A stretch of 64,000 nucleotides of DNA, from contig OX597816.1 of assembly GCA_951406725.2 (NCBI GenBank), forward strand, positions 54,746,001-54,810,000, read 5' to 3'. This DNA is from Octopus vulgaris (lineage: Eukaryota). A program made the translations under genes and the position numbers. A model generated the notes under the pieces. The model had not been told where the DNA came from, searched no databases, and saw only the letters and a list, made by a program, of their open reading frames with translations. Positions 9,985 to 62,353 of the stretch are shown here, in pieces. Position 1 is the stretch's first letter. Each line of letters begins with the position of its first letter.

Positions 9985-10170
9985 TTCGCCATGATAGATC
10001 ACTTGCCACTACACATTCTCCATGTTTCTTTCTGTGTTCCTTTCTGTTGAAGAGCGTAGGTTCGAAACGTTAAAGACGTTTTCACTTCCCGAGCGTTATA
10101 CTAATACATCTATTTGTTGTCTACACCACCTGTCTTCGTATTTTGATTTTTTTACGAATTGTCCCCCTAT
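9985..10170 (+). mobile_element. PLE pseudo-LTR-like fragment with degenerate minimal hammerhead (10040-10075)
   Basis: Between TA repeats; cttt CTGTTGA A GAGC-gtag-GTTC GAAAC GTT aaag; homologous copy at 62160-62357. Confidence 0.6.
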
Positions 10171-25050: not shown

Positions 25051-25992
25051 CTATCCGTTTTCTTTAGGGGACCAAAAACGTAACAGAAATTTAGTCACAT
25101 GTGGGCATGATCCGAAAAGTTCTGTCCTTGTATTTAGACATGTGGTAGGGTCTAAGCTGCTTTTCCAGATAAGCCATCTCTCCATGTCGCATAAACCGCA
25201 CCTTCCGCTGCCGTTAGTATAGGGCTTACATCTGGCCAAAATCTTCCATTGTATGTTATAATCGACACCTTTATCTCTTAAAGACCAAATATGATTGGAT
25301 AATTGTGTCGCTTTTCTTTTGTTCCAGTGCCTAAAGCTCAAAGTGTGGTTATTGAACCTGGCCTTGAAATTACCCTCTGTCAGGCCCACGTATTTCTTCG
25401 TCAAAACGGTGTCTTTAGTGGTTATAGAGTTTACGGTAGCTTCATATATGATGGTCTTGGACATGCAAGCTCCATTTAGCGGGCACAATTCTTTATTCCT
25501 GCATGAACAGCTGTTTTCTTCTTGTGTTTTTTGTATGTTATGATTGATTATGTTTTTAAAATTGGTAGTTGAACTAAAACTAATTTTTAAATTGTGTCTA
25601 TTGAAGAGTTTCCTATAAGCATGGTTAACTGGAAAATGTCTATCTATCAGTGCTAGGAAATATTTACCTATATTGAAGGCCACCTCGGGTGAGTAAGGGG
25701 GCGTAAACCAGATGACCTTCCTATTTCTATTATTCCTTTTCCTTATTGTTGGGCTGGTGATAGGTGTATATTTTATTTTTTCGCTAAAACCACTATCTTT
25801 TAAAGCTTTATTATAAACTGGGGCAACGCTATTGAAGATGTCCTCATTAGATGAGAGGCTAGAAATCCTCTTACTAATATTTTTAACTAAATTTTTGAAT
25901 ACTATAGGGGGATGGCATGAACCTACATTAATATAACTTAGTCTATCATTGGGCTTCCTATAAGGCTTATAAATATTATTATTAAGATCTAA
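25051..25992 (-). CDS. PLE polyprotein C-terminal part: RT thumb, linker and GIY-YIG endonuclease (5'-truncated, no start codon)
   Basis: Open frame LDLNNNIYKPYRKPNDRLSYINVGSCHPP...ALKDSGF...WFTPPYS...NIGKYFL...CSCRNKELCPLNGAC..IIYEATV..YVGLTEGNFKARFNNH..CGLCDME..LNTRTEL..CPH. Confidence 0.9.
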   Translation of the reverse strand, partial: LDLNNNIYKPYRKPNDRLSYINVGSCHPPIVFKNLVKNISKRISSLSSNEDIFNSVAPVYNKALKDSGFSEKIKYTPITSPTIRKRNNRNRKVIWFTPPYSPEVAFNIGKYFLALIDRHFPVNHAYRKLFNRHNLKISFSSTTNFKNIINHNIQKTQEENSCSCRNKELCPLNGACMSKTIIYEATVNSITTKDTVLTKKYVGLTEGNFKARFNNHTLSFRHWNKRKATQLSNHIWSLRDKGVDYNIQWKILARCKPYTNGSGRCGLCDMERWLIWKSSLDPTTCLNTRTELFGSCPHVTKFLLRFWSPKENG

Positions 25993-30635: not shown

Positions 30636-33571
30636 CGCATCTTGAACCCGATATAGGTGATGCAGAAATACACATGCCACAATATGCAGTCATACGCACA
30701 GATAGAAAAGGGAGGAGCCATGGTGGAGTTGCAATGTACATCCGAGATGACCTCACGCCCCAGGTCCTGCTGTCATATTCAAACTCAGTATGTGAAACTC
30801 AAATTGTACACATAAGACAACTGAATATCGTCATATGCACTACATATCGCCCACCAGACGCCCCAAAACACTCAGGCATGTTTGAAGACTGCCTAACAAA
30901 AATAGAGAAGTCCTCACCAACCTTGAACAGCACAACAGTGTATTCTTCATGGGTGACTTTAACCTCCCCAATGTGGAATGGCCTGGGGGGCAGATGCTCC
31001 CAGGGATGACACACCATCAGCAGGCACAGGTGGAGTCCCTGCTCCATCTCACAAATACCTCTTTCATGGAAGCAAATAGTTCTGCAACCAACAAGGGCAG
31101 ATAATATACTGGATCTCTGCTTCACAAACAATATGGATATTATCCATAATGTTAATGTGATGCCGACAATGATCTCGGATCACAACATAATAGAGCTGTC
31201 TATGTATGGAACAAAAGCCCCCGCAGACACACAGCCTATACGAAGCACCTACCATCTCTCCAACTTAAACTTTCATAAAGCCAACTGGAAGTCGATTGAG
31301 AAAGAGATCCTCAAACAGGATTGGCCTGAATGTCTCTCCACACCGGACATAAACATGAAACACAAACACTTCATGTCCATAATACAAGCCATATGTGACA
31401 AATATGTCCCAATGTGCAGGGCCAGCACACACAAGAACAAAAACAGGATCCCTAGAGAAAGGAGGATTCTTATGAGACGACGGACAAGGATTGCAAACCG
31501 CCTGAGCAAGCACACCAAAAGTGGTGAGAAGTCTCGGCTCGAAAGAATGCTAATGGAAACTGAGAAAAGTCTACATCAGTTCCATGAAAAGGAGAGAGCA
31601 GATAAAGAAGCTTGGGTAATAGAAAATATAAAATCAAACCCTAAAGCTTTCTTTAAGTTTGCCAAAGAGACAGCCACAGTGCACCAGAGAATAGGACCTC
31701 TCTTCCAAACAGATGGCTCTCTCACAGGAAATCCCACGAGGATAAGTGAAATACTGAACGAACAGTTCCAAAGTGTGTTCACTACACCTCTAGGACACAG
31801 GCAAGTAAACAACCCAGAAGAATTCTTTGCCACTTTACCAGCGGCCAAAGAGACAAAAATTGAGTACATCAACATCGAAGAAGATGATATCACACTAGCC
31901 ATTGATGAGATTGACACAAACTCAGCTGCTGGACCTGATGGATTCCCAGCGATCCTTCTCAAATCGTGCAAACGAGCCCTTGCAAAACCGCTACAGCTTC
32001 TTTTTCAGAGCTTTCTTGCAAGTGGTAAGCTCCCAGTCAAACTGAAAGAGGGGGTAATATGCCCTATCCATAAGAGAGGTAGCAGAGCAGATGCTAAAAA
32101 TTATAGGCCTATCTCTCTGACCTCACACATCAGCAAAGTCATGGAACGAATAGTCCGTAAGAAACTAATCATGTTCCTTGAAGAAAATGACTTACTGTCT
32201 GACACCCAGCATGGATTTCGACCAGGTAGAGGCTGCCTAACACAGCTCCTGCAACACTATGACTGGGTGTTGAAACAGCTACTAAATGGCTCAAATGTGG
32301 ATGTAATATATCTTGACTTTGCAAAAGCCTTTGATAAAGTCGACCATGGTATGATCTGTCACAAACTGCGTGGTCTCGGCATAGGCGGGAAACTTGGAGA
32401 GTGGCTGCACAACTTCCTAAAAGACAGAAAACAGGCAGTTGTGAGCAATGGAGCCACCTCCAGGGAAACGCAAATAACAAGCGGTGTCCCACAGGGCACT
32501 GTCTTGGGGCCACTGATGTTCATGGTGGCCCTTTCAGACATGCCTTCAGTTGCTACGATGACCACCCTTGCTAGCTATGCAGATGACACAAAAGTCTCCC
32601 ACGCAATACAAAACCCTGAAAATATTGCGCATCTGCAACATGAGCTGGACACAATATACAGGTGGGCTGAGGACAACAACATGCAGTTTAATGCAGGTAA
32701 GTTCCAGGCCCTGCGCTACTGGCACACAAAGGTAAATGACGTGAAGACTGGATACACTGGCCCAGGAAGAATTGCAATCCCTGAGTCAAAATCAGTGCGT
32801 GACCTGGGCATTGACATGAGCAATGATGCATCTTTCCAAATGCATATTGCTAATCTGGTGATAAAATGCAGACGGCTGGCTGGATGGATTCTCCGAACTT
32901 TCAGAACAAGAGAGAAGGAGACACTGATGGTCCTATGGAAAACATTCGTCCTCAGCCGCTTGGACTACTGCTCCCAACTTTGGTCACCACACAATATAAA
33001 ACAAACAGCAGAACTCGAAGCAACTCAGAGAAGCTACACAAAGAAAATCGTCTCAATGCAAAATGTCAGCTACTGGGAAAGACTGAAGGTATTAAACCTC
33101 TTCTCCCTGGAGCGGAGGCGGGAGAGATATGCAGTGATATACATCTGGAAAATCCTGGAGGGTCTTGTCCCAAACTTTGGCATTCAAAGTTACTCCAACC
33201 GCAGAACGGGGCGCCGCTGCGTGGTGCCAAGGATTCCAACATCACCATCAAAATACAGGTCCAGATACTGCAACAGCTTGGGTTTCAGAGGACCACAGCT
33301 CTTTAACATCCTCCCTAAATGCCTGAGAGACTTACATGGTGTGGATGTGGGTTTCTTTAAAACTAAACTGGATCTCTTCTTGTTGGGAGTCCCAGATGAA
33401 CCTACCTCACGACAGGAGACACGGATGCGGGCAGCAGCATCGAACTCCCTTGTTGATCAAGTGCCACGTATCAGAGGTGGATTCACAAACTAGTGTAGCT
33501 CATTCAGCGGTGGTGCCCCAGCATGGCCGCGGCCTTCGGGCTAGAACATTTTTAAGGATTTAAGGATTTAA

Positions 33572-33574
<3 letters not shown>
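30635..33574 (+). mobile_element. CR1/L2-group LINE, 5'-truncated, in (TA)n
   Basis: APE motifs (THL, RTDR..GGVAMY, YRPP, MGDFN, LDLCF, SDHN) followed by RT; 3' hairpin and (TTTAAGGA)3 tail. Confidence 0.95.
31133..33493 (+). CDS. LINE ORF2 (end of APE plus reverse transcriptase), 786 aa open; upstream APE frameshifted
   Basis: AAGPDG, NYRPISLTS, QHGFR, YLDFAKAFDKVDH, SGVPQGTVLGP, YADD, RDLGI, LDYCSQLWSP. Confidence 0.93.
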   Translation: MDIIHNVNVMPTMISDHNIIELSMYGTKAPADTQPIRSTYHLSNLNFHKANWKSIEKEILKQDWPECLSTPDINMKHKHFMSIIQAICDKYVPMCRASTHKNKNRIPRERRILMRRRTRIANRLSKHTKSGEKSRLERMLMETEKSLHQFHEKERADKEAWVIENIKSNPKAFFKFAKETATVHQRIGPLFQTDGSLTGNPTRISEILNEQFQSVFTTPLGHRQVNNPEEFFATLPAAKETKIEYINIEEDDITLAIDEIDTNSAAGPDGFPAILLKSCKRALAKPLQLLFQSFLASGKLPVKLKEGVICPIHKRGSRADAKNYRPISLTSHISKVMERIVRKKLIMFLEENDLLSDTQHGFRPGRGCLTQLLQHYDWVLKQLLNGSNVDVIYLDFAKAFDKVDHGMICHKLRGLGIGGKLGEWLHNFLKDRKQAVVSNGATSRETQITSGVPQGTVLGPLMFMVALSDMPSVATMTTLASYADDTKVSHAIQNPENIAHLQHELDTIYRWAEDNNMQFNAGKFQALRYWHTKVNDVKTGYTGPGRIAIPESKSVRDLGIDMSNDASFQMHIANLVIKCRRLAGWILRTFRTREKETLMVLWKTFVLSRLDYCSQLWSPHNIKQTAELEATQRSYTKKIVSMQNVSYWERLKVLNLFSLERRRERYAVIYIWKILEGLVPNFGIQSYSNRRTGRRCVVPRIPTSPSKYRSRYCNSLGFRGPQLFNILPKCLRDLHGVDVGFFKTKLDLFLLGVPDEPTSRQETRMRAAASNSLVDQVPRIRGGFTN

Positions 33575-33610
<36 letters not shown>

Positions 33611-33729
33611 AATCAAGGAATGGCCATAATAGGCCATTCACCCACTAGAAATAACAGCCAAAGCTTCAACCGCAAAATAACATTAATTCCGCAAACCAGG
33701 AGAAAATTAAAAAAGCATTTACCCTGTAA

Positions 33730-33834
33730 TTTCTTATACGATGCACCGTTTCATCTATTGTTTAATGGTAAACTAACCTGATTAAATTAAATCAAGCCAA
33801 TCTTCCATAGGCCGATAGATTCGTCAGTAAGAAA
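33730..33834 (-). ncRNA. Type I hammerhead ribozyme (cassette A, copy 1)
   Basis: TTTCTTA CTGACGA ATCTAT..ATAGAT GAAAC GGTGCATC GTA TAAGAAA. Confidence 0.88.
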
Positions 33835-34212
33835 TAGCCAGATCCGAGCAGATATTATCACGAGGCACCTCTATCCCTGCCTCGGCAATATCTGACCTAA
33901 AATTTTCAAATCATCGCACTCGCGCCAAATTTATCGGCAGCAAATATAAGCCGCCGATTCCATTACGGAATTAACCAGAAAATTCATAATTAATCAATAT
34001 AGGGTGGCAAAAAATTCGTAGAATTTATTTGCCACCAGCGGCCTAATGGGAAAAAATTAAATAGTCATAGACCATTTATAAGTTCAACATCACAATCAAG
34101 GAATGGCCATAATAGGCCATTCACCCATTAGAAATAACAGCCAAAGCTTCAACCGCAAAATAACATTAATTCCGCAAACCAGGAGAAAATTAAAAAAACA
34201 TTTACCCTGTAA

Positions 34213-34317
34213 TTTCTTATACGATGCACCGTTTCATCTATTGTTTAAGGGTAAACTAACCTGATTAAATTAAATCAAGCCAATCTTCTATAGGCCGATA
34301 GATTCGTCAGTAAGAAA
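34213..34317 (-). ncRNA. Type I hammerhead ribozyme (cassette A, copy 2)
   Basis: Same motif, 483 bp from copy 1. Confidence 0.88.
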
Positions 34318-34761
34318 CAGCCAGATCCGAGCAGATATTACCACGAGGCACCTCTATCCCTGCCTCGGCAATATCTGACCTAAAATTTTCAAATCATCGC
34401 ACTCGCGCCAAATTTATCGGCAGCAAATATAAGCCGCCGATTCCATTACGGAATTAACCAGAAAATTCATAATTAATCAATATAGGGTGGCAAAAAATTT
34501 CGTAGAATTTATTTGCCACCAGCGGCCTAGTGGGAAAAAATTAAATAGTCATAGACCATTTATAAGTTCAACATCACAATCAAGGAATGGCCATAATATT
34601 GATTAATTATGAATTTTCTGGTTAATTCCGTAATGGAATCGGCGGCTTATATTTGCTGCCGATAAATTTGGTGCGAGTGCGATGATTTGAAAATTTTAGG
34701 TCAGATATTGCCGAGGCAGGGATAGAGGTGCCTCGTGATAATATCTGCTCGGATCTGGCTG

Positions 34762-34866
34762 TTTCTTACTGACGAATCTATCGGCCTATGGAAGATTGGC
34801 TTGATTTAATTTAATCAGGTTAGTTTACCATTAAACAATAGATGAAACGGTGCATCGTATAAGAAA
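34762..34866 (+). ncRNA. Type I hammerhead ribozyme (cassette A, inverted copy)
   Basis: Stem I TTTCTTA/TAAGAAA, CTGACGA, stem II ATCTAT/ATAGAT, GAAAC, GTA cleavage triplet. Confidence 0.88.
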
Positions 34867-35086
34867 TTACAGGGTAAATGTTTTTTTAATTTTCTCCTGG
34901 TTTGCGGAATTAATGTTATTTTGCGGTTGAAGCTTTGGCTGTTATTTCTAGTGGGTGAATGGCCTATTATGGCCATTCCTTGATTGTGATGTTGAACTTA
35001 TAAATGGTCTATGACTATTTCATTTTTTCCCACTAGGCCGCTGGTGGCAAATAAATTCTACGAAACTTTTTGCCACCCTATATTGA

Positions 35087-35122
<36 letters not shown>

Positions 35123-35287
35123 GTTGTATACTGTCAATCTAACAAGAACGTGACAGTAGGGGGTACACCACCGCTGTATAGCCCTAGGAAGCATCGAACG
35201 CCTCCTGATAGCTTTCACACATTTTCCCCTGTGTCCTTATATAGATATACGAAGGGGAGACAAACACCCCCGGGTGCCGGAACTGCA

Positions 35288-35333
35288 TCTAGGGACACCG
35301 TGTTTCAGGATCGTTGTCCTTCATCGGCCTAGA
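35288..35333 (-). ncRNA. Type I hammerhead ribozyme (cassette B, copy 1)
   Basis: TCTAGG CCGATGA AGGA-caacga-TCCT GAAAC ACGGT GTC CCTAGA. Confidence 0.88.
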
Positions 35334-35650
35334 GTAGCAGACACCGGTCAGCTGGTGATATTTGCCTCGGCTTCGTAATTCTATATATCTATATTCAGTG
35401 AAGTTTATTCACTGATTATCAAAATAAGAAATATTGAATTTCTAAATCTCTCGTAGAGACATGTACGGTGGTGGTGCGATAGAATGGTTGTATACTGTCA
35501 ATCTAACAAGAACGTGACAGTAGGGGTACACCACCGCTGTATAGCCCTAGGAAGCATCGAACGCCTCCTGATAGCTTTGAAACATTTTTCCCTGTGTCCT
35601 TATATAGATATACGAAGGGGAGACAAACACCCCCGGCTGCCGGAACTGCC

Positions 35651-35696
35651 TCTAGGGACACCGTGTTTCAGGATCGTTGTCCTTCATCGGCCTAGA
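35651..35696 (-). ncRNA. Type I hammerhead ribozyme (cassette B, copy 2)
   Basis: Identical motif 363 bp from copy 1. Confidence 0.88.
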
Positions 35697-35832
35697 GTAG
35701 CACATGTCTCTACGAGAGATTTAGAAATTCAATATTTCTTATTTTGATAATCAGTGAATAAACTTCACTGAATATAGATATATAGAATTACGAAGCCGAG
35801 GCAAATATCACCAGCTGATCGGTGTCTGCTAC

Positions 35833-35878
35833 TCTAGGCCGATGAAGGACAACGATCCTGAAACACGGTGTCCCTAGA
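35833..35878 (+). ncRNA. Type I hammerhead ribozyme (cassette B, inverted copy)
   Basis: Identical motif on the + strand. Confidence 0.88.
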
Positions 35879-36104
35879 TGCAGTTCCGGCAGCCGGGGGT
35901 GTTTGTCTCCCCTTCGTATATCTATATAAGGACACAGGGAAAAATGTGTGAAAGCTATCAGGAGGCGTTCGATGCTTCCTAGGGCTATACAGCGGTGGTG
36001 TACCCCCTACTGTCACGTTCTTGTTAGATTGACAGTATACAACCATTCTATCGCCCCACCACCGTACATGTCTCTACGAGAGATTTAGAAATTCAATATT
36101 TCTT

Positions 36105-36168
<64 letters not shown>

Positions 36169-36189
36169 TATATATATAAATAAATATAT

Positions 36190-37291
36190 ATATCTTTTAT
36201 CTGTTACTGCTCTCAGCCCAGAGCTGAGATCATGCTGGTGCACCACCTGTAGTTACGCGGTTTTGTTTCCTGTATTGTTTTTGGTGAAATAGAGATTTGG
36301 ACGGAGCTCCTCCTCTTTGCATCTCCTGGCGCGATGTGAGTTCATCTGGTATCTCAGACGTTCCTCCACTTCAACACCATGTAGATCTCTAAGGCTGCCT
36401 GGCAGGATGTTGAACAATTGTTGAAATCCACGCTATTGTTTTACTGTGTCCTTCTTCTAAATGGGAAGACGGGATCTTTGGTATGGTGCAGTGCCGTCCA
36501 GTTCCAGGATTGGTATTGCAGTCAATTCCAAAATCGGAATCTAAACCCTTCAAGATCCTCATATCTCTCTCGCCTTCTCTCCGGGGAGTTGATATTCAGC
36601 TCCTTTCGCCTCTCCCAGTAACCCATCTTTTGCATCGAGTCAATCTTCATTGGTCATTGTCGCTGGATTGCTTCAAGTTCTACTGTGTGTTTCACAATCT
36701 CTGAGGATTATAACTGGGAACTGTAGTCGAAGCGGCTGAGAACGAAAGTCCTCCACAAGAGTAGCAGGGTCTTCCTTCTCCTGGTTCTGAATCCATGCAG
36801 TCTCCCACCTGCACAGTGTTTCATTCTTGGTATTATGCATATGGAATGTTGCATCATTGCTCATATGAAACTCCATATCACGCATCCACTCTGAATCTGG
36901 GATCGTATTACCTTCTGGTCCAGTGTATTCCGATTTTAGCCTAGTGTTAGGCTGATAATGGAGTACCTGAAATTTCATATCGTTGAACTGCATGCTATTT
37001 TTGTTAGCCTATTTGTATATTTCATTCAGGTCTTTCTGCAGTTTTATGATTTCCTGTAGGTTCCTAAATTACTGAGGTACTTTTGTGTTATCCGCGTAAC
37101 TGGTCAGGTTGGCTGACTGTACCACGGAAGATATATCTGAGAGAACCACTACGAATAGTAGTGGCCATAGGACAGTTCCCTCTTGGACTCTGTTGATAAT
37201 TGGTGCCTCTGCAGAGTGAGCATCATTAGCTACAACTGTCTGCCTCCTACTCTTCAGAAAGTCACGCAGCTGCTCTCCCAGTTTCCCGGTG
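36190..37291 (-). mobile_element. Older CR1/L2-group LINE 3' fragment
   Basis: [49 protein letters not shown]; 3' tail GGTGGTGCACCAGCATG. Confidence 0.85.
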
Positions 37292-37386
37292 ATACATACA
37301 TACATACATACATACATACATTCATACATACATACGTACATACATATATATATGTGTGTGTGTGTATGTATGTGTGTGCGTGCGTG

Positions 37387-37444
<58 letters not shown>

Positions 37445-37485
37445 AATGTATATATGTATATATGTATATATACATATACATATAC

Positions 37486-37542
<57 letters not shown>

Positions 37543-38010
37543 TTAAAATAACTAAGTCTCTCTAAAAGAGAACGCGGCAGCGTTCCCGGAAAATAATAGT
37601 TATCGCCATACTAATATGGCATTCTTATAAAAATAAGAAAAAGCTGTCCGCTTATTAGCTCCATGAGGCCATCGCCTTAAGTTAGCTATTTGATACACAA
37701 ACTGTATCCATATAACCTGACCTCCCTTGTTCGAAGGTTATATGGATACAGTTTGTGTATCAAATAGCTAACTTAAGGCGATGGTCATGGAGCTAATAAG
37801 CGGACAGCTTTTTTCTTATTTTTATAAGAATGCCATATTAGTATGGCGATAACTATTATTTTCCGGGAACGCTGCCGCTGTTCTCTTTTAGAGAGACTTA
37901 GTTATTTTAATATTTCTATTATTGAAAACAAGTGGATGTATTCCACCGAAACTAGGTAAATAAAACCATCGAACAGAGATTGTCGGAAGCGACACCTACT
38001 GGCTGGCTAC

Positions 38011-38052
38011 GCTGCATTGAAAAGGGGCAATACCCTGAAACGCGTCTGTAGC
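38011..38052 (+). ncRNA. Variant minimal hammerhead (U3-A8 core), cassette C copy 1
   Basis: GCTGCA TTGAAAA GGGG-caata-CCCT GAAAC GC GTC TGTAGC. Confidence 0.75.
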
Positions 38053-38372
38053 TGCCGGTCAAGTAGTGTGGAGCGACTGACCTCCCTTGTTCGAAGGTTA
38101 TATGGATACAGTTTGTGTATCAAATAGCTAACTTAAGGCGATGGCCTCATGGAGCTAATAAGCGGACAGCTTTTTTCTTATTTTTATAAGAATGCCATAT
38201 TAGTATGGCGATAACTATTATTTTCCGGGAACGCTGCCGCTGTTCTCTTTTAGAGAGACTTAGTTATTTTAATATTTCTATTATTGAAAACAAGTGGATG
38301 TATTCCACCGAAACTAGGTAAATAATACCATCGAACAGAGATTGTCGGAAGCGACACCTACTGGCTGGCTAC

Positions 38373-38414
38373 GCTGCATTGAAAAGGGGCAATACCCTGA
38401 AACGCGTCTGTAGC
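38373..38414 (+). ncRNA. Variant minimal hammerhead (U3-A8 core), cassette C copy 2
   Basis: Identical motif 362 bp downstream. Confidence 0.75.
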
Positions 38415-38577
38415 TGCCGGTCAAGTAGTGTGGAGCGACTGACCTCCCTTGTTCGAAGGTTATATGGATACAGTTTGTGTATCAAATAGCTAACTTAAGG
38501 CGATGGCCTCATGGAGCTAATAAGCGGACAGCTTTTTTCTTATTTTTATAAGAATGCCATATTAGTATGGCGATAAC

Positions 38578-38618
<41 letters not shown>

Positions 38619-38620
<2 letters not shown>

Positions 38621-41530
38621 ACTTAGAATAACTTAGAAAGGTTTTTGGCCAGTATTGGCCCAGGCCATGTCTAACTTAATAGCACCACCTGGCGAAGTCT
38701 TTCAGTTCAGGATTTGGGCACCAAGGCCCATTCGAGCAGAGAGTTATTGGTTGCGGAGACATATCCGGGTGTGGGTGGTTTGTCCGGTACTGTTTGAAGG
38801 AATTTGTCCAAAGACTTCTTGAATTTTGTGTGGTCAGTTTCTTTTTTGACGTGTCCTGGTGTAATGTTGAAGAGAGCGGGTCCAATTGAGGTGAAATAGT
38901 TGTGCCGTATTGTCGTTATGTGATGTGATTTAGATTTTTGTTGTGGACGGATGGCACGTGGTCCAAGCCTTGGATGCATTTTGAAGGTGATGCCAGTATC
39001 ATTCGGACAGTGCTGATGGAATATTTTCCACATCATACAGATAATGTAGCGTTCACGGCGTCGTTGGAGTGAATACAATTGCAGCTTCTCTAGTCTACCC
39101 CAGTAGTCAAGGTCTGACATGCCATCTATCTTTTTTGTGATTGACCTTTGGGGAGCTTCAATTCTCATAATATTTTGTTTTGTGTAGGGAGACCACAGTG
39201 GACAGCAGTATTCAAGGTGGGGTCGGGCAAAAGTGGAGAAGAGAAGGATAATAGCGTGGGAATCTCTCGACTGGAAGGTTCTGAGAATCCAGGAACACAT
39301 TCTGCGGGCCATGTCAACTTTGCTGCTTATATGTGTAGCCCAGCTTATGTTGTTGTCCACTGTTACTCCCAGGTCTCTGATGTTGTTGGATGCCATGAGA
39401 ATTTCTCCAGAAGGAAGAGAGTATGGGAGTTTCAGAGCGTCCTCCCTTCCAAAGTGGATCAGTTCGAATTTGTCTTCATTTAGCAACATGTTATTCTTTT
39501 CCGCCCATTGGACAACAGCCAGTAGGTCTCACTGAAGGTTTATTCGGTCATCCACGCCATTGATGACCTTCTGGAGCTTGGGATCATCAGCGAAGGTTCT
39601 GATGTTACTGTGTTTGATGGTGTCAGTAATATCATTTATGTAGATGATGAAGAGAAGTGGGCCCAACACGGTGCCTTGTGGGACACCACTGCTGACTTTG
39701 GCTGGGCTGGATTTGACTCCTTCGACTACAACAAGTTGGGTTCTGTTAGACAGGAAGCACTTGATCCATTGCAGCAGCTTTCCAGTGACACCAATATTGG
39801 ACAGCTTTCTCAGAAGGATCTTATGATCAACCCTGTCAAAGGCCTTGCTGAAATCAAGGTAGATGACATCAGTGTTGGAACCCTCTCCCAAGGCTCTCAA
39901 AATGTCATCAAAATGATGCAGTAGCTGCGTCAGGCAATCTCTCCCATTACGGAATCCATGCTGGTTGGGGTTCAGCATATTATGACTCTCAAGGAAGTGA
40001 GTCATACGCGATCTCAGCACCCTCTCAAATACCTTGATGATATGAGAGGTGAGTGAGATTGGACGGTAATTCACGGCAAGCGATTTGTTTCCTTTTTTGA
40101 AAACTGGGACAACAGACTGGGATAGAAGGTCTTCTGGTATATATCCAGCATCCAGTGAGTTCCGCCACAGATTGGCTAGAGGGGGTGCAAGTTGGTTTTG
40201 ACACATCTTCAAGACACAAGCAGGGAACCTATCGGGACCTACTGCTGAATTATGCTTCATTTCCTTTATTGCTGCTAAGACATCAGGAGCGCCAAATGTT
40301 ATGTCCGATAAAGTGTATTGGGGAGTAACATCACTGATACAGTCATATCAGGATTGCTGAAAACAGAGCAATATTGTTTCTGCAATATCTCTCCCATGGT
40401 TTTGGCATTGTCTTGAAGAGTACCATTTTCATCAATCAGAGGGCCAACAGTAGAACCAGTGACTGTGTTTTTTTGCAAATGAAAAGAACACTTTGGGATT
40501 GAGTTTGATCTTCTCAATGGCCCAGGCCTCTTCAGCTCTTCGCTGACTATTGATGATAGACATCATGTTGTTTTGGAGTTTATGTTTTTTAATCTCTAGC
40601 GACGAGATGGCAGTCAGGTTGGTGTGTTGCTGTTGACAGTATTTCTGCATGTTGATCTTTTTGTTGATTCTTTTAATTTTCCTTATGAGAGATTTTCTAT
40701 TTCTAGGGATTCGACACTTAGATTTGTTTGCAGATCTTAATGGGGTGTGTCTTGCACATATGTTCGTGATGGTGTCTACAAGTGACTGCCAGGACTTTTT
40801 GATGTTAGTGGGTGTGTATGTGTGCGTGAAGGACCAATCGACTTGTGCAAGATCATTATTGATGGCTTCCCAGTTTGCATTGTGGAAATCCATAGTGTCA
40901 AATGGATGAACAGGAGGGATGACATTTGTTTTGCATTTTGGCCAGTGAAATCTCAGATCACAGAGAACCATGTCATGGTCGGAGAGTAGGGTTTTCTCCA
41001 CTGCAATATTGTGGATAGTATCAGTGTGATTGCTGAAAATTAAGTCTAAGACGTTTTTGTGACATCTCGTTGGTTCGAGTACCAGTTGGGACAAGAAGAA
41101 GTCATCCATGAAGTCAAGAAGCGATTCCACTGCCTCCCTGTCAGGGGTTGAGAGAGAAGAACCTGGCGGCAGACTGTTTGTAGACCAGTCAACCCCGGGA
41201 AGGTTGAAGTCTCCCATCATTAAAATGTTGTCAGGTTGACACTGCTGAATGAAACACTTTATGCTGTTGAGGCATTCCTTGAAGCATGGTAGGGGCGTTT
41301 GGGGTGGTCTGTAGAGCCCAACTACTGTTAAGTTGTTGGTTTGACTGAATACAGCGACTGCTTCGCAGTATCCATTGGAAAATATGTTCATGGCTTCTGT
41401 TGAGAATGAATCATGGACATAAATGGCAGTCCCACCCTTTCTTCTGCCAGCACGATCAGCACGAATGGTTTTGAAATGTTTAACTTTCACCTCGGCTTCC
41501 AAGTGGAGGTCACTAAGATGGGTTTCAGTG
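38619..41530 (-). mobile_element. CR1/L2-group LINE (second family), 5'-truncated, frameshifted ORF2, in (TA)n
   Basis: APE (TETHL, RADR..GGTAIYV, LYRPP, MGDFN, LDLIF, SDHD) in 40432-41502; RT (NYRPISLTS, LDFSKAFD, GVPQGTVLGP, FADD) in 39529-40260; C-terminus 38707-39489; (TTCTAAGTTA)2 tail. Confidence 0.95.
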
Positions 41531-41542
41531 TATATACATATG

Positions 41543-41608
<66 letters not shown>

Positions 41609-62159: not shown

Positions 62160-62353
62160 ATTCGCCATGATAAATCGCTAGCCACTACACATTCTTTATT
62201 TTCCCTCCTTGCTTCTTTCTGTGTTCCTTTCTGTGGAAGAGCGTAGGCTCGAAAGCTTAAAGACTTTTTCACTTCCCCAGCGTTAAACTAATACATCTGT
62301 TTGTTGTCTACACCACCTGTCTTCATCTTTTGTTTTGTTTTTTTGTAAATTCT

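Follow-up and report, generated by a model that had tools for sequence, protein, structure and literature searches.

We analyzed a 64,000-nt stretch of the Octopus vulgaris genome (assembly GCA_951406725.2, contig OX597816.1, positions 54,746,001–54,810,000 of the forward strand), hereafter called the window, in which three cassettes (A, B, and C) of short, non-coding tandem units lie between positions 33606 and 38583, each family bearing type I hammerhead ribozyme motifs. These elements are very probably non-autonomous retroelements that depend on a Penelope-like element (PLE). On balance we favor, with moderate confidence, the more specific reading that A and B/C belong to the animal type of non-LTR retrozymes (LTR, long terminal repeat) and are copied by a PLE protein with reverse transcriptase (RT) and GIY-YIG domains in a circle-templated cycle. 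Mobilization by a PLE is supported, at the level of the genome sequence, by two fixed RT start sites, head-to-head 5′-truncated arms, target duplications, dispersed young copies, and the presence of active TA-targeting PLEs. The first-pass annotation of the window had proposed three unrelated families of non-autonomous parasites of a (TA)n-targeting PLE; the genomic insertion footprint supports the parasite part of this proposal, and the division into three families fails.

A Paired-site Footprint in the Genomic Copies

All three cassettes consist of two arms placed head to head with their 3′ ends outward, and each 3′ end runs into (TA)n. The inverted second arm was absent from the first description of the cassettes, and it provides A and B with a third hammerhead, on the plus strand. 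With unit positions counted from the hammerhead cut, 3′ ends are fixed at two sites in each family, site 1/site 2 lying at 131/234 in A, 178/233 in B, and 175/235–238 in C. All six sites end in AT, and the tail from site 1 to site 2 measures 55–103 nt (55, 63, and 103 nt across the families).

The assembly that we searched comprises 2.8 Gb in 227 contigs. The genome-wide check of copy number that had been suggested for these units returned thousands of them, dispersed over many contigs: the site 2 motif of A had 2811 exact matches and a motif common to B and C had 4548 (counts of units, not of loci), compared with 0 for the reversed-pattern controls. The best genome matches of C and A were 99–100% identical. 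From these we mapped 128 elements in 119 merged regions, of which two that were cut by a region edge were left out. Among the remaining 126 elements, 83 had two or more arms and 43 had a single arm. In all 83 multi-arm elements, minus precedes plus and the 3′ ends point outward. Both ends lie at a site in 71 two-arm copies, of which 70 combine site 1 with site 2 and one has site 2 at both ends (binomial p = 2e-11 against a null of 2/3, which allows for sampling via site 2); a further 12 two-arm copies have an end elsewhere. Another 40 loci yielded 33 two-arm copies, of which 30 combine site 1 with site 2, none uses the same site twice, and 3 have an end elsewhere, so that the two sites are used one each in 100 of the 101 scorable two-arm copies when both sets are pooled. 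Two independent complexes with random choice of site would yield many same-site pairs, and one in 101 was seen.

TA-rich DNA adjoins 158 of 194 site ends. In non-microsatellite flanks, direct target duplications of 7–15 nt containing G or C were found in at least 6 of 30 copies, a count that has no chance control and cannot be read in (TA)n. Among 64 young junctions between arms, 46 overlap by 1–10 nt, 5 are blunt, and 13 carry extra letters. The 5′ ends are spread throughout the unit, and just 4 of 214 arms end within 5 nt of the hammerhead cut. Arms crossing 0, 1, 2, 3, 4, 5, 6, and 7 cut sites numbered 80, 70, 40, 13, 5, 2, 2, and 1, respectively, and one arm crosses 10; 134 of 214 arms thus cross at least one cut site, and arrays reach ∼10 units.

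Two Lineages with a Conserved Hammerhead Fold

B and C are collinear over ∼310 nt, with a local alignment score of 67 compared with 22.5 ± 3.0 for shuffled sequences (0 of 200 shuffles reached 67). Alignment A1, built from 19 units of B and of several subfamilies of C, covers the entire unit, and 19 of the 44 pairs of the predicted whole-unit fold change on both sides. The same test revealed no relation of A to B or C, 67 of 200 and 44 of 200 shuffles, respectively, scoring as high. By these comparisons, homology between B and C extends through almost the entire unit and A is unrelated to both, which reduces the three supposedly unrelated families to two lineages, A and B/C. Site 2 lies 233–238 nt after the cut in both lineages, whereas the position of site 1 differs (131 versus 175–178); the common distance to site 2 is real, yet with two independent lineages it is not separable from coincidence.

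A relaxed type I hammerhead descriptor matched eight motifs in the window, all eight inside the cassettes, and placed the cut sites of the three predicted monomers where the first-pass annotation had put them. The descriptor also matched 1 of 500 dinucleotide-shuffled A units and 0 of 500 for each of B and C. The A core is canonical, with a 68-nt insert in stem II, and among 98 motifs of the A family N7 takes all four letters with the core kept. In B/C, 7 of the 12 pairs of the hammerhead helices change on both sides, and 97% of the cells pair, compared with 28–53% in slid controls. The stem III loop alternates between the palindromes UGCA and UAUA in A, and between ACGCGU and ACAUGU in C; such switching fits the dimeric hammerheads described for metazoan and PLE motifs (PMC4209133). 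Circular folding of units A, B, and C gave z-scores of −6.3, −8.6, and −7.4 against 40 shuffles. Taken together, the descriptor matches, the shuffles, the covariation, and the retention of the A core indicate that the type I hammerhead fold is kept by selection. The units are otherwise non-coding, as first annotated, the longest stop-free stretches on circularized units being 60 (A), 94 (B), and 55 (C) codons; no tRNA was found in the units, and the anatomy of the mapped elements includes no LTR-flanked interior.

Other observations weigh on the opposite side. The cores of B (CCGAUGA, with U4C) and C (UUGAAAA, with a U3-A8 swap and a self-complementary stem III of 2 bp) are non-canonical; the U3-A8 variant is known from Schistosoma Cercyon (PMC4209133). 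Among the covariation cells, a few subfamily splits are represented many times over. Scanned with Rfam at E ≤ 1, the window gave 112 matches, nearly all of them microRNA models on microsatellites, and none to a hammerhead family. Repeats in TA tracts, whether tandem or inverted, are moreover prone to recombination, and both this and the Rfam result would suit cassettes that are DNA-level satellites, fold-back repeats, or assembly fold-backs with incidental hammerhead-like motifs. We consider such an origin highly implausible, given the asymmetric fixed ends and single polarity counted above, the variable 5′ ends, the target duplications, and the dispersal over many contigs, together with the shuffle controls and the covariation.

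Unit Homogeneity and the Template of Reverse Transcription

A doubly cleaved linear monomer can be ruled out as the main template, since at least one cut site is crossed by 134 of 214 arms and no accumulation of 5′ ends is seen at it. Units within a locus diverge by 0.6–2.4%, compared with a median of 4–12% between loci, and subfamily changes have become fixed in all units of the two arms. If the source were a heterogeneous multimer, the two arms should match better in register than out of register. We compared them in the 64 of 92 site 1 + site 2 copies that have at least two offsets and found a pooled divergence of 1.00% in register (241/24063) and 0.86% out of register (375/43741), which indicates that the units were near-identical at insertion. 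An early hint of in-register inheritance between arms, as from a linear multimer, was not upheld by this direct arm-versus-arm alignment and was tentatively ascribed, for the most part, to gap placement against the reference unit.

Near-identical units would arise naturally from a monomer circle. Read-through and unit homogeneity fit a circular template but do not prove it; provided that a PLE mobilizes the elements, we regard a circular monomer as their likely main template. A competing explanation keeps the same PLE-dependent elements and replaces the circle with an uncut linear multimeric transcript, the hammerhead being slow, protein-assisted, or used for trimming only, and long arrays reflecting sources that were already long, template jumping, or unequal crossover at a later stage. 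Several observations suit that explanation and weigh against the circle. Read-through of the cut sites fits uncut RNA equally, and a very young, homogeneous multimer would also give near-identical units. In a reconstituted system, the PLE Poseidon (PAc) did not need the hammerhead, used unprocessed RNA, and inserted normally with hammerhead mutants (PMC11167929), and only 1 of 9 Xenopus retrozyme dimers was cleaved in vitro, leaving 8 uncleaved (10.64898/2026.07.22.740005). Locus by locus there is a weak, non-significant lean toward inherited heterogeneity (in-register divergence lower at 37 loci and higher at 22; sign test p = 0.067, Wilcoxon p = 0.45), and a few long arrays have shared variants that are mixed or of period 3, which a monomer circle can explain only with later recombination. 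The linear multimer is nonetheless unlikely in our estimation. No in-register gain appears in the pooled data, though many potential source arrays are 0.5–4% divergent internally; the subfamily changes in every unit of both arms need a monomer bottleneck; and compensatory change keeps the hammerhead helices. The circular monomer is accordingly the template that we retain below.

Coding PLEs of the Same Genome

Several intact coding PLE families, with copies 98–99% identical, were found in a partial survey in which 150 of 6136 GIY-YIG candidates were scored. Family P1 (L070, G000:C6:133343000-133350000) has a 781-amino acid open reading frame (ORF) with RT and GIY-YIG domains and an upstream 479-amino acid ORF without a clear Pfam family. 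Such a separate upstream ORF is unusual, canonical PLEs having a single ORF. P1 is flanked by TA and has a pseudo-LTR of 504 bp, a hairpin-bearing tail of 40 nt, and a degenerate hammerhead core in which U3 and A8 are swapped; its two-arm copies (2 of 16, L072 and L086) pair both start sites. Family P4 has 784-amino acid frames at 99% identity and a hammerhead-like motif with GCAA instead of the expected GAAA, and its insertions often consist of two long arms placed head to head. Of the two P4 copies looked at in detail (L058 and L052), L058 has two long head-to-head arms with both sites used and a tail of ∼40 nt, as in P1. Close opposite-strand match pairs of P4 were minus-plus in 12 of 12 cases (64 of 131 places entered, partly picked as neighbors). 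P1, P4, and their relatives, which we take to be members of the Neptune clade on a zinc-finger linker criterion and not on a tree, share a UUGAUAA core with a palindromic stem III of 2 bp, like family C. Family P7 (L253, G000:C8:57973300-57981000) is very active and GC-rich, with TA flanks, intact frames of 1100–1200 codons, and a single 3′ end that a minimal hammerhead-like motif precedes by ∼100 nt; neither a tail nor an inverted arm was found in 18 long-ORF copies, all of which have a single orientation and one end.

Some further motifs and fragments were noted in the course of this survey. A U4C core is present in P2 (L077) too. A short repeat beside TA runs in L041 (190-245) and L268 has the hammerhead-like core CCGACGA (U4C), with a 15-bp stem I in L041, and is possibly another family, which by eye shows no relation to A, B, and C. 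L081 (reverse strand, ∼556-1335) and L107 contain pieces of a PLE type that is more distant and whose RT motif region differs.

In 159 regions (493 kb) around the units, no RT or GIY-YIG ORF was flanked by a unit. The matches to PLE proteins or to P1, P2, P3, or P7 DNA in these regions lie beside units across TA, in two chimeras, or at one insertion of a unit into a PLE remnant. In the chimeras (L196/L269 and L190/L270), a B or C arm is joined in sense orientation, without TA and with microhomology of a few nucleotides, to a 5′-truncated P7 copy, and the opposite arm ends at site 1. One of them, L196, was considered as a unit running into an ORF of its own and was rejected once recognized as a chimera. 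The chimeras hint that P7 machinery can meet these RNAs, although there are two of them and the usual geometry of P7 differs. Candidate partners are of the P4/P1 type by geometry and hammerhead core and P7 by the two chimeras, with P4 the best by geometry.

The absence of a unit-flanked ORF from these regions also bears on the possibility, raised in the first-pass annotation itself, that each unit is the ordinary pseudo-LTR of a coding PLE. The cassettes would then be heavily 5′-truncated copies, that is, tandems of solo pseudo-LTRs, of an unseen coding PLE and would not be amplified independently. Their architecture is wholly PLE-like, partial tandems are standard among PLEs (PMC8557442), and the survey of coding families is incomplete. 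Arrays of up to ∼10 precise units and the collinearity of B and C round the whole unit, with one fold kept through compensatory change as in a long-lived non-coding lineage, argue against truncation in addition to the 159 regions, and we judge this origin very improbable.

The dependence of A and B/C on a PLE has to be weighed against five further observations. First, when the units were compared with the terminal regions of P1, P4, P7, and four more PLE families, no alignable similarity above shuffles was found; the best results of the 18 shuffle-calibrated tests were matched by 1 of 100 and 3 of 100 shuffles, on AT-rich DNA, and a blastn comparison of the units with 50 PLE loci yielded no more than a 53-nt piece of A (L039) and one copy of a C subfamily (L055), both beside PLEs. 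Second, such similarity does exist in Xenopus, where 24 of 57 retrozyme families match known transposable elements, 21 of 22 of these being PLEs (10.64898/2026.07.22.740005). Third, tails of 55–103 nt are longer than the ∼40 nt of P1 and P4 and the 30–40 nt published for PLEs. Fourth, the 43 single-arm copies are left unexplained by a two-primer step as formulated below. Fifth, the mapped sample combines the best matches with the motif matches met first on contig 1, was chosen through site 2, and includes a few loci that duplicate one another.

A Proposed Cycle

The preferred reading, a circle-templated cycle run by a PLE protein, would proceed in five steps. A tandem arm would be transcribed. 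By analogy with other members of the class, type I hammerheads would cut out a monomer, probably working in dimeric form given their short, self-complementary stem III, and a host ligase would close it. A PLE protein would nick both strands of (TA)n or AT-rich DNA, presumably as one asymmetric complex, and both 3′ ends would prime RT, one at site 1 and the other at site 2, where the ends are seen. Each RT would run 5′-ward through the 0–10 hammerhead junctions that are seen in DNA and stop at a variable point. The two cDNAs would be joined head to head, mostly over 1–7 nt of microhomology, and a short target duplication would be left, as is seen in the products.

A bolder version, which we offer tentatively and think somewhat doubtful, is that a single dimer of PLE protein binds one small RNA circle and primes both nicks at two staggered sites, that rolling-circle RT writes the entire array, tandem and inverted parts together, in a single event, and that B/C is an old circular-RNA lineage of conserved structure, recruiting a PLE by shape alone and sharing no sequence with it. 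If true, the one-of-each pairing would be a genomic record of an asymmetric PLE integration complex.

Relation to Known Retrozymes and PLEs

Animal non-LTR retrozymes have been described, with PLEs proposed as their mobilizers and a circle proposed as the RT template (PMC7229834). As in that class, the units here are short, low in GC (37, 44, and 41% in A, B, and C, below 50%), and non-coding, are arranged in tandem with a type I hammerhead each and two same-strand motifs one unit apart, and in some copies are flanked by target duplications of more than 4 bp. They differ in that all multi-arm copies are head to head with two fixed 3′ ends in (TA)n; in the accessible text of PMC7229834, the words "inverted" and "microsatellite" do not occur. 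Unit A (483 nt) also exceeds the 150–450-bp range given there, the B and C cores are non-canonical, and cleavage and circles are here predicted only.

A 2026 preprint argues for a PLE origin of retrozymes and says that the mechanism remains to be elucidated (10.64898/2026.07.22.740005). Its retrozymes, with units of 51–972 bp, resemble ours as non-autonomous PLE derivatives with hammerhead tandem units that occur alongside active PLEs. The link to PLEs is sequence homology to pseudo-LTRs in the preprint, which was not found here, and the insertion footprint in the octopus. The preprint discusses local amplification by unequal crossover, whereas the arrays here look as if they were made at insertion; the terms "tail," "target site," and "head-to-head" do not occur in its accessible text.

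The footprint has close counterparts among endonuclease-bearing PLEs. A PLE protein nicks and extends both strands, two internal RNA start sites bound a genomic tail, and the protein prefers AT-rich DNA and is predicted to dimerize (Frangieh et al., PMC11167929). PLEs form partial tandems with a head-to-head inverted arm and a 30–40-bp tail often at one end only (Craig et al., PMC8557442; Adineta, PMC3846280), and they show 8–10-bp duplications and a microsatellite bias (PMC8557442; PMC3846280). The elements described here share with PAc, Adineta Penelope, and Neptune/Naiad the two RT start sites bounding a tail, the inverted 5′-truncated arm, the AT-rich or microsatellite targets, and the hammerhead that those PLEs carry in the pseudo-LTR. 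They differ from them in having precise multi-unit arrays, longer tails, a site pairing that has been counted, and units that have no ORF and hence lack the RT and GIY-YIG ORF of an autonomous PLE. Chlamys MRC1 is likewise non-autonomous and inserts in multicopy head-to-tail form (PMC8557442); unlike the octopus units, non-autonomous Chlamys elements have 3′ sequence in common with the autonomous partner, and canonical hammerheads are missing from most Chlamys elements (PMC8557442).

The first-pass annotation knew of no description of these particular families, and our literature search, to which Repbase, Dfam, subscription journals, and supplements were external, likewise found none, nor any of head-to-head two-site retrozyme insertions. 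The class itself and the argument for its PLE origin are in print, as cited above, and the cassettes are thus new families within a known class, the non-LTR retrozymes, with an unusually informative insertion footprint. The footprint bears on the route by which animal retrozymes return to the genome, since it can be counted in thousands of young copies that lie in one genome with intact coding PLEs. The one-of-each pairing sharpens the qualitative remark that a PLE tail is usually at one end only, and it predicts that, in an in vitro PLE system, a doubly extended target would use both start sites, one per strand. The defined RNAs, start sites, and candidate enzymes make both retrozyme mobilization and the two-site mechanism of PLEs directly testable.

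Organization of the Cassettes and Their Surroundings

Same-strand hammerhead pairs one unit apart in each cassette bear out the annotated unit lengths of 483, 363, and 362 nt. The annotated TA borders are likewise present, as five (TA)n runs, one of which A and B share. Cassette A (L013) begins at a (TA)17 run (33574..33607) preceded by the (TTTAAGGA)3 tail of a long interspersed nuclear element (LINE). Its left arm (33606..34598, minus strand, 993 nt, ∼2 units) has its 3′ end at site 1 (unit position 131) and is 5′-truncated at unit position 106. The first hammerhead of this arm (33729..33835, minus strand) has the core CUGACGA and the element GAAAC-GGUGCAUC-GUA, with a predicted cut after 33737; its stem II closes the 68-nt insert, and stem I has 8 bp. 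The second hammerhead (34212..34318, minus strand) has its predicted cut after 34220, and the predicted monomer between the two cuts (33737..34219, minus strand) is 483 nt long with 37% GC. The right, inverted arm (34596..35094, plus strand, 499 nt) overlaps the left one by 3 nt and extends from unit position 220 to its 3′ end at site 2 (unit position 234); it bears the third hammerhead (plus strand, core at 34769, predicted cut after 34859).

The (TA)13 run common to A and B (35092..35117) leads into cassette B (L025). Its left arm (35115..35702, minus strand, 588 nt) has its 3′ end at site 1 (unit position 178) and carries two minus-strand hammerheads with the core CCGAUGA and predicted cuts after 35657 and 35294, which delimit a predicted monomer of 363 nt with 44% GC (35294..35656, minus strand). 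The right, inverted arm (35702..36106, plus strand, 405 nt) runs from unit position 193 to site 2 (unit position 233), with a predicted cut after 35872, and ends at a (TA)n run (36104..36193).

Cassette C (L001) lies between a (TA)n run on its left (37391..37536) and (TA)20 on its right (38581..38620), the latter adjoining the 3′ end of a minus-strand LINE. Its left, inverted arm (37534..37718, minus strand, 185 nt) extends from a 5′ end at unit position 49 to a 3′ end at site 2 (unit position 235) and has no hammerhead. The right arm (37717..38583, plus strand, 867 nt, 2.4 units) runs from unit position 31 to site 1 (unit position 175), and its two plus-strand hammerheads (core UUGAAAA, stem III AC-GC-GU) have predicted cuts after 38046 and 38408, giving a predicted monomer of 362 nt with 41% GC (38047..38408, plus strand).

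Contigs from 4 of 24 listed sequencing runs, guessed to be RNA, cover 28–29 of 30 bins of the A+B stretch; they carry no information on strand, ends, level, or circularity and were not used as evidence. In some runs, A greatly exceeded B in summed contig depth, a difference that cannot rank expression. Contigs from a run labeled as a second organism cover 29 of 30 bins of 34620-35470 at ≥90%; A and B probably occur in related species.

Two near-complete LINE copies occupy 31010-33573 and 38620-41607, both with RT and the second also with an APE endonuclease. Their 3′ tails, the (TTTAAGGA)3 and AACTTAGAAT repeats, adjoin the same TA runs that received A/B and C, and these runs are landing pads for several element types. 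A broken minus-strand LINE remnant at 36560-37288, 66% identical to the LINE at 32386-33131, falls within 33606..38583 and is unrelated to the cassettes. Elsewhere in the window, short P7-like PLE-end remnants and a weak PLE protein match were found at 10027-10153, 62162-62335, and 25645-25938.

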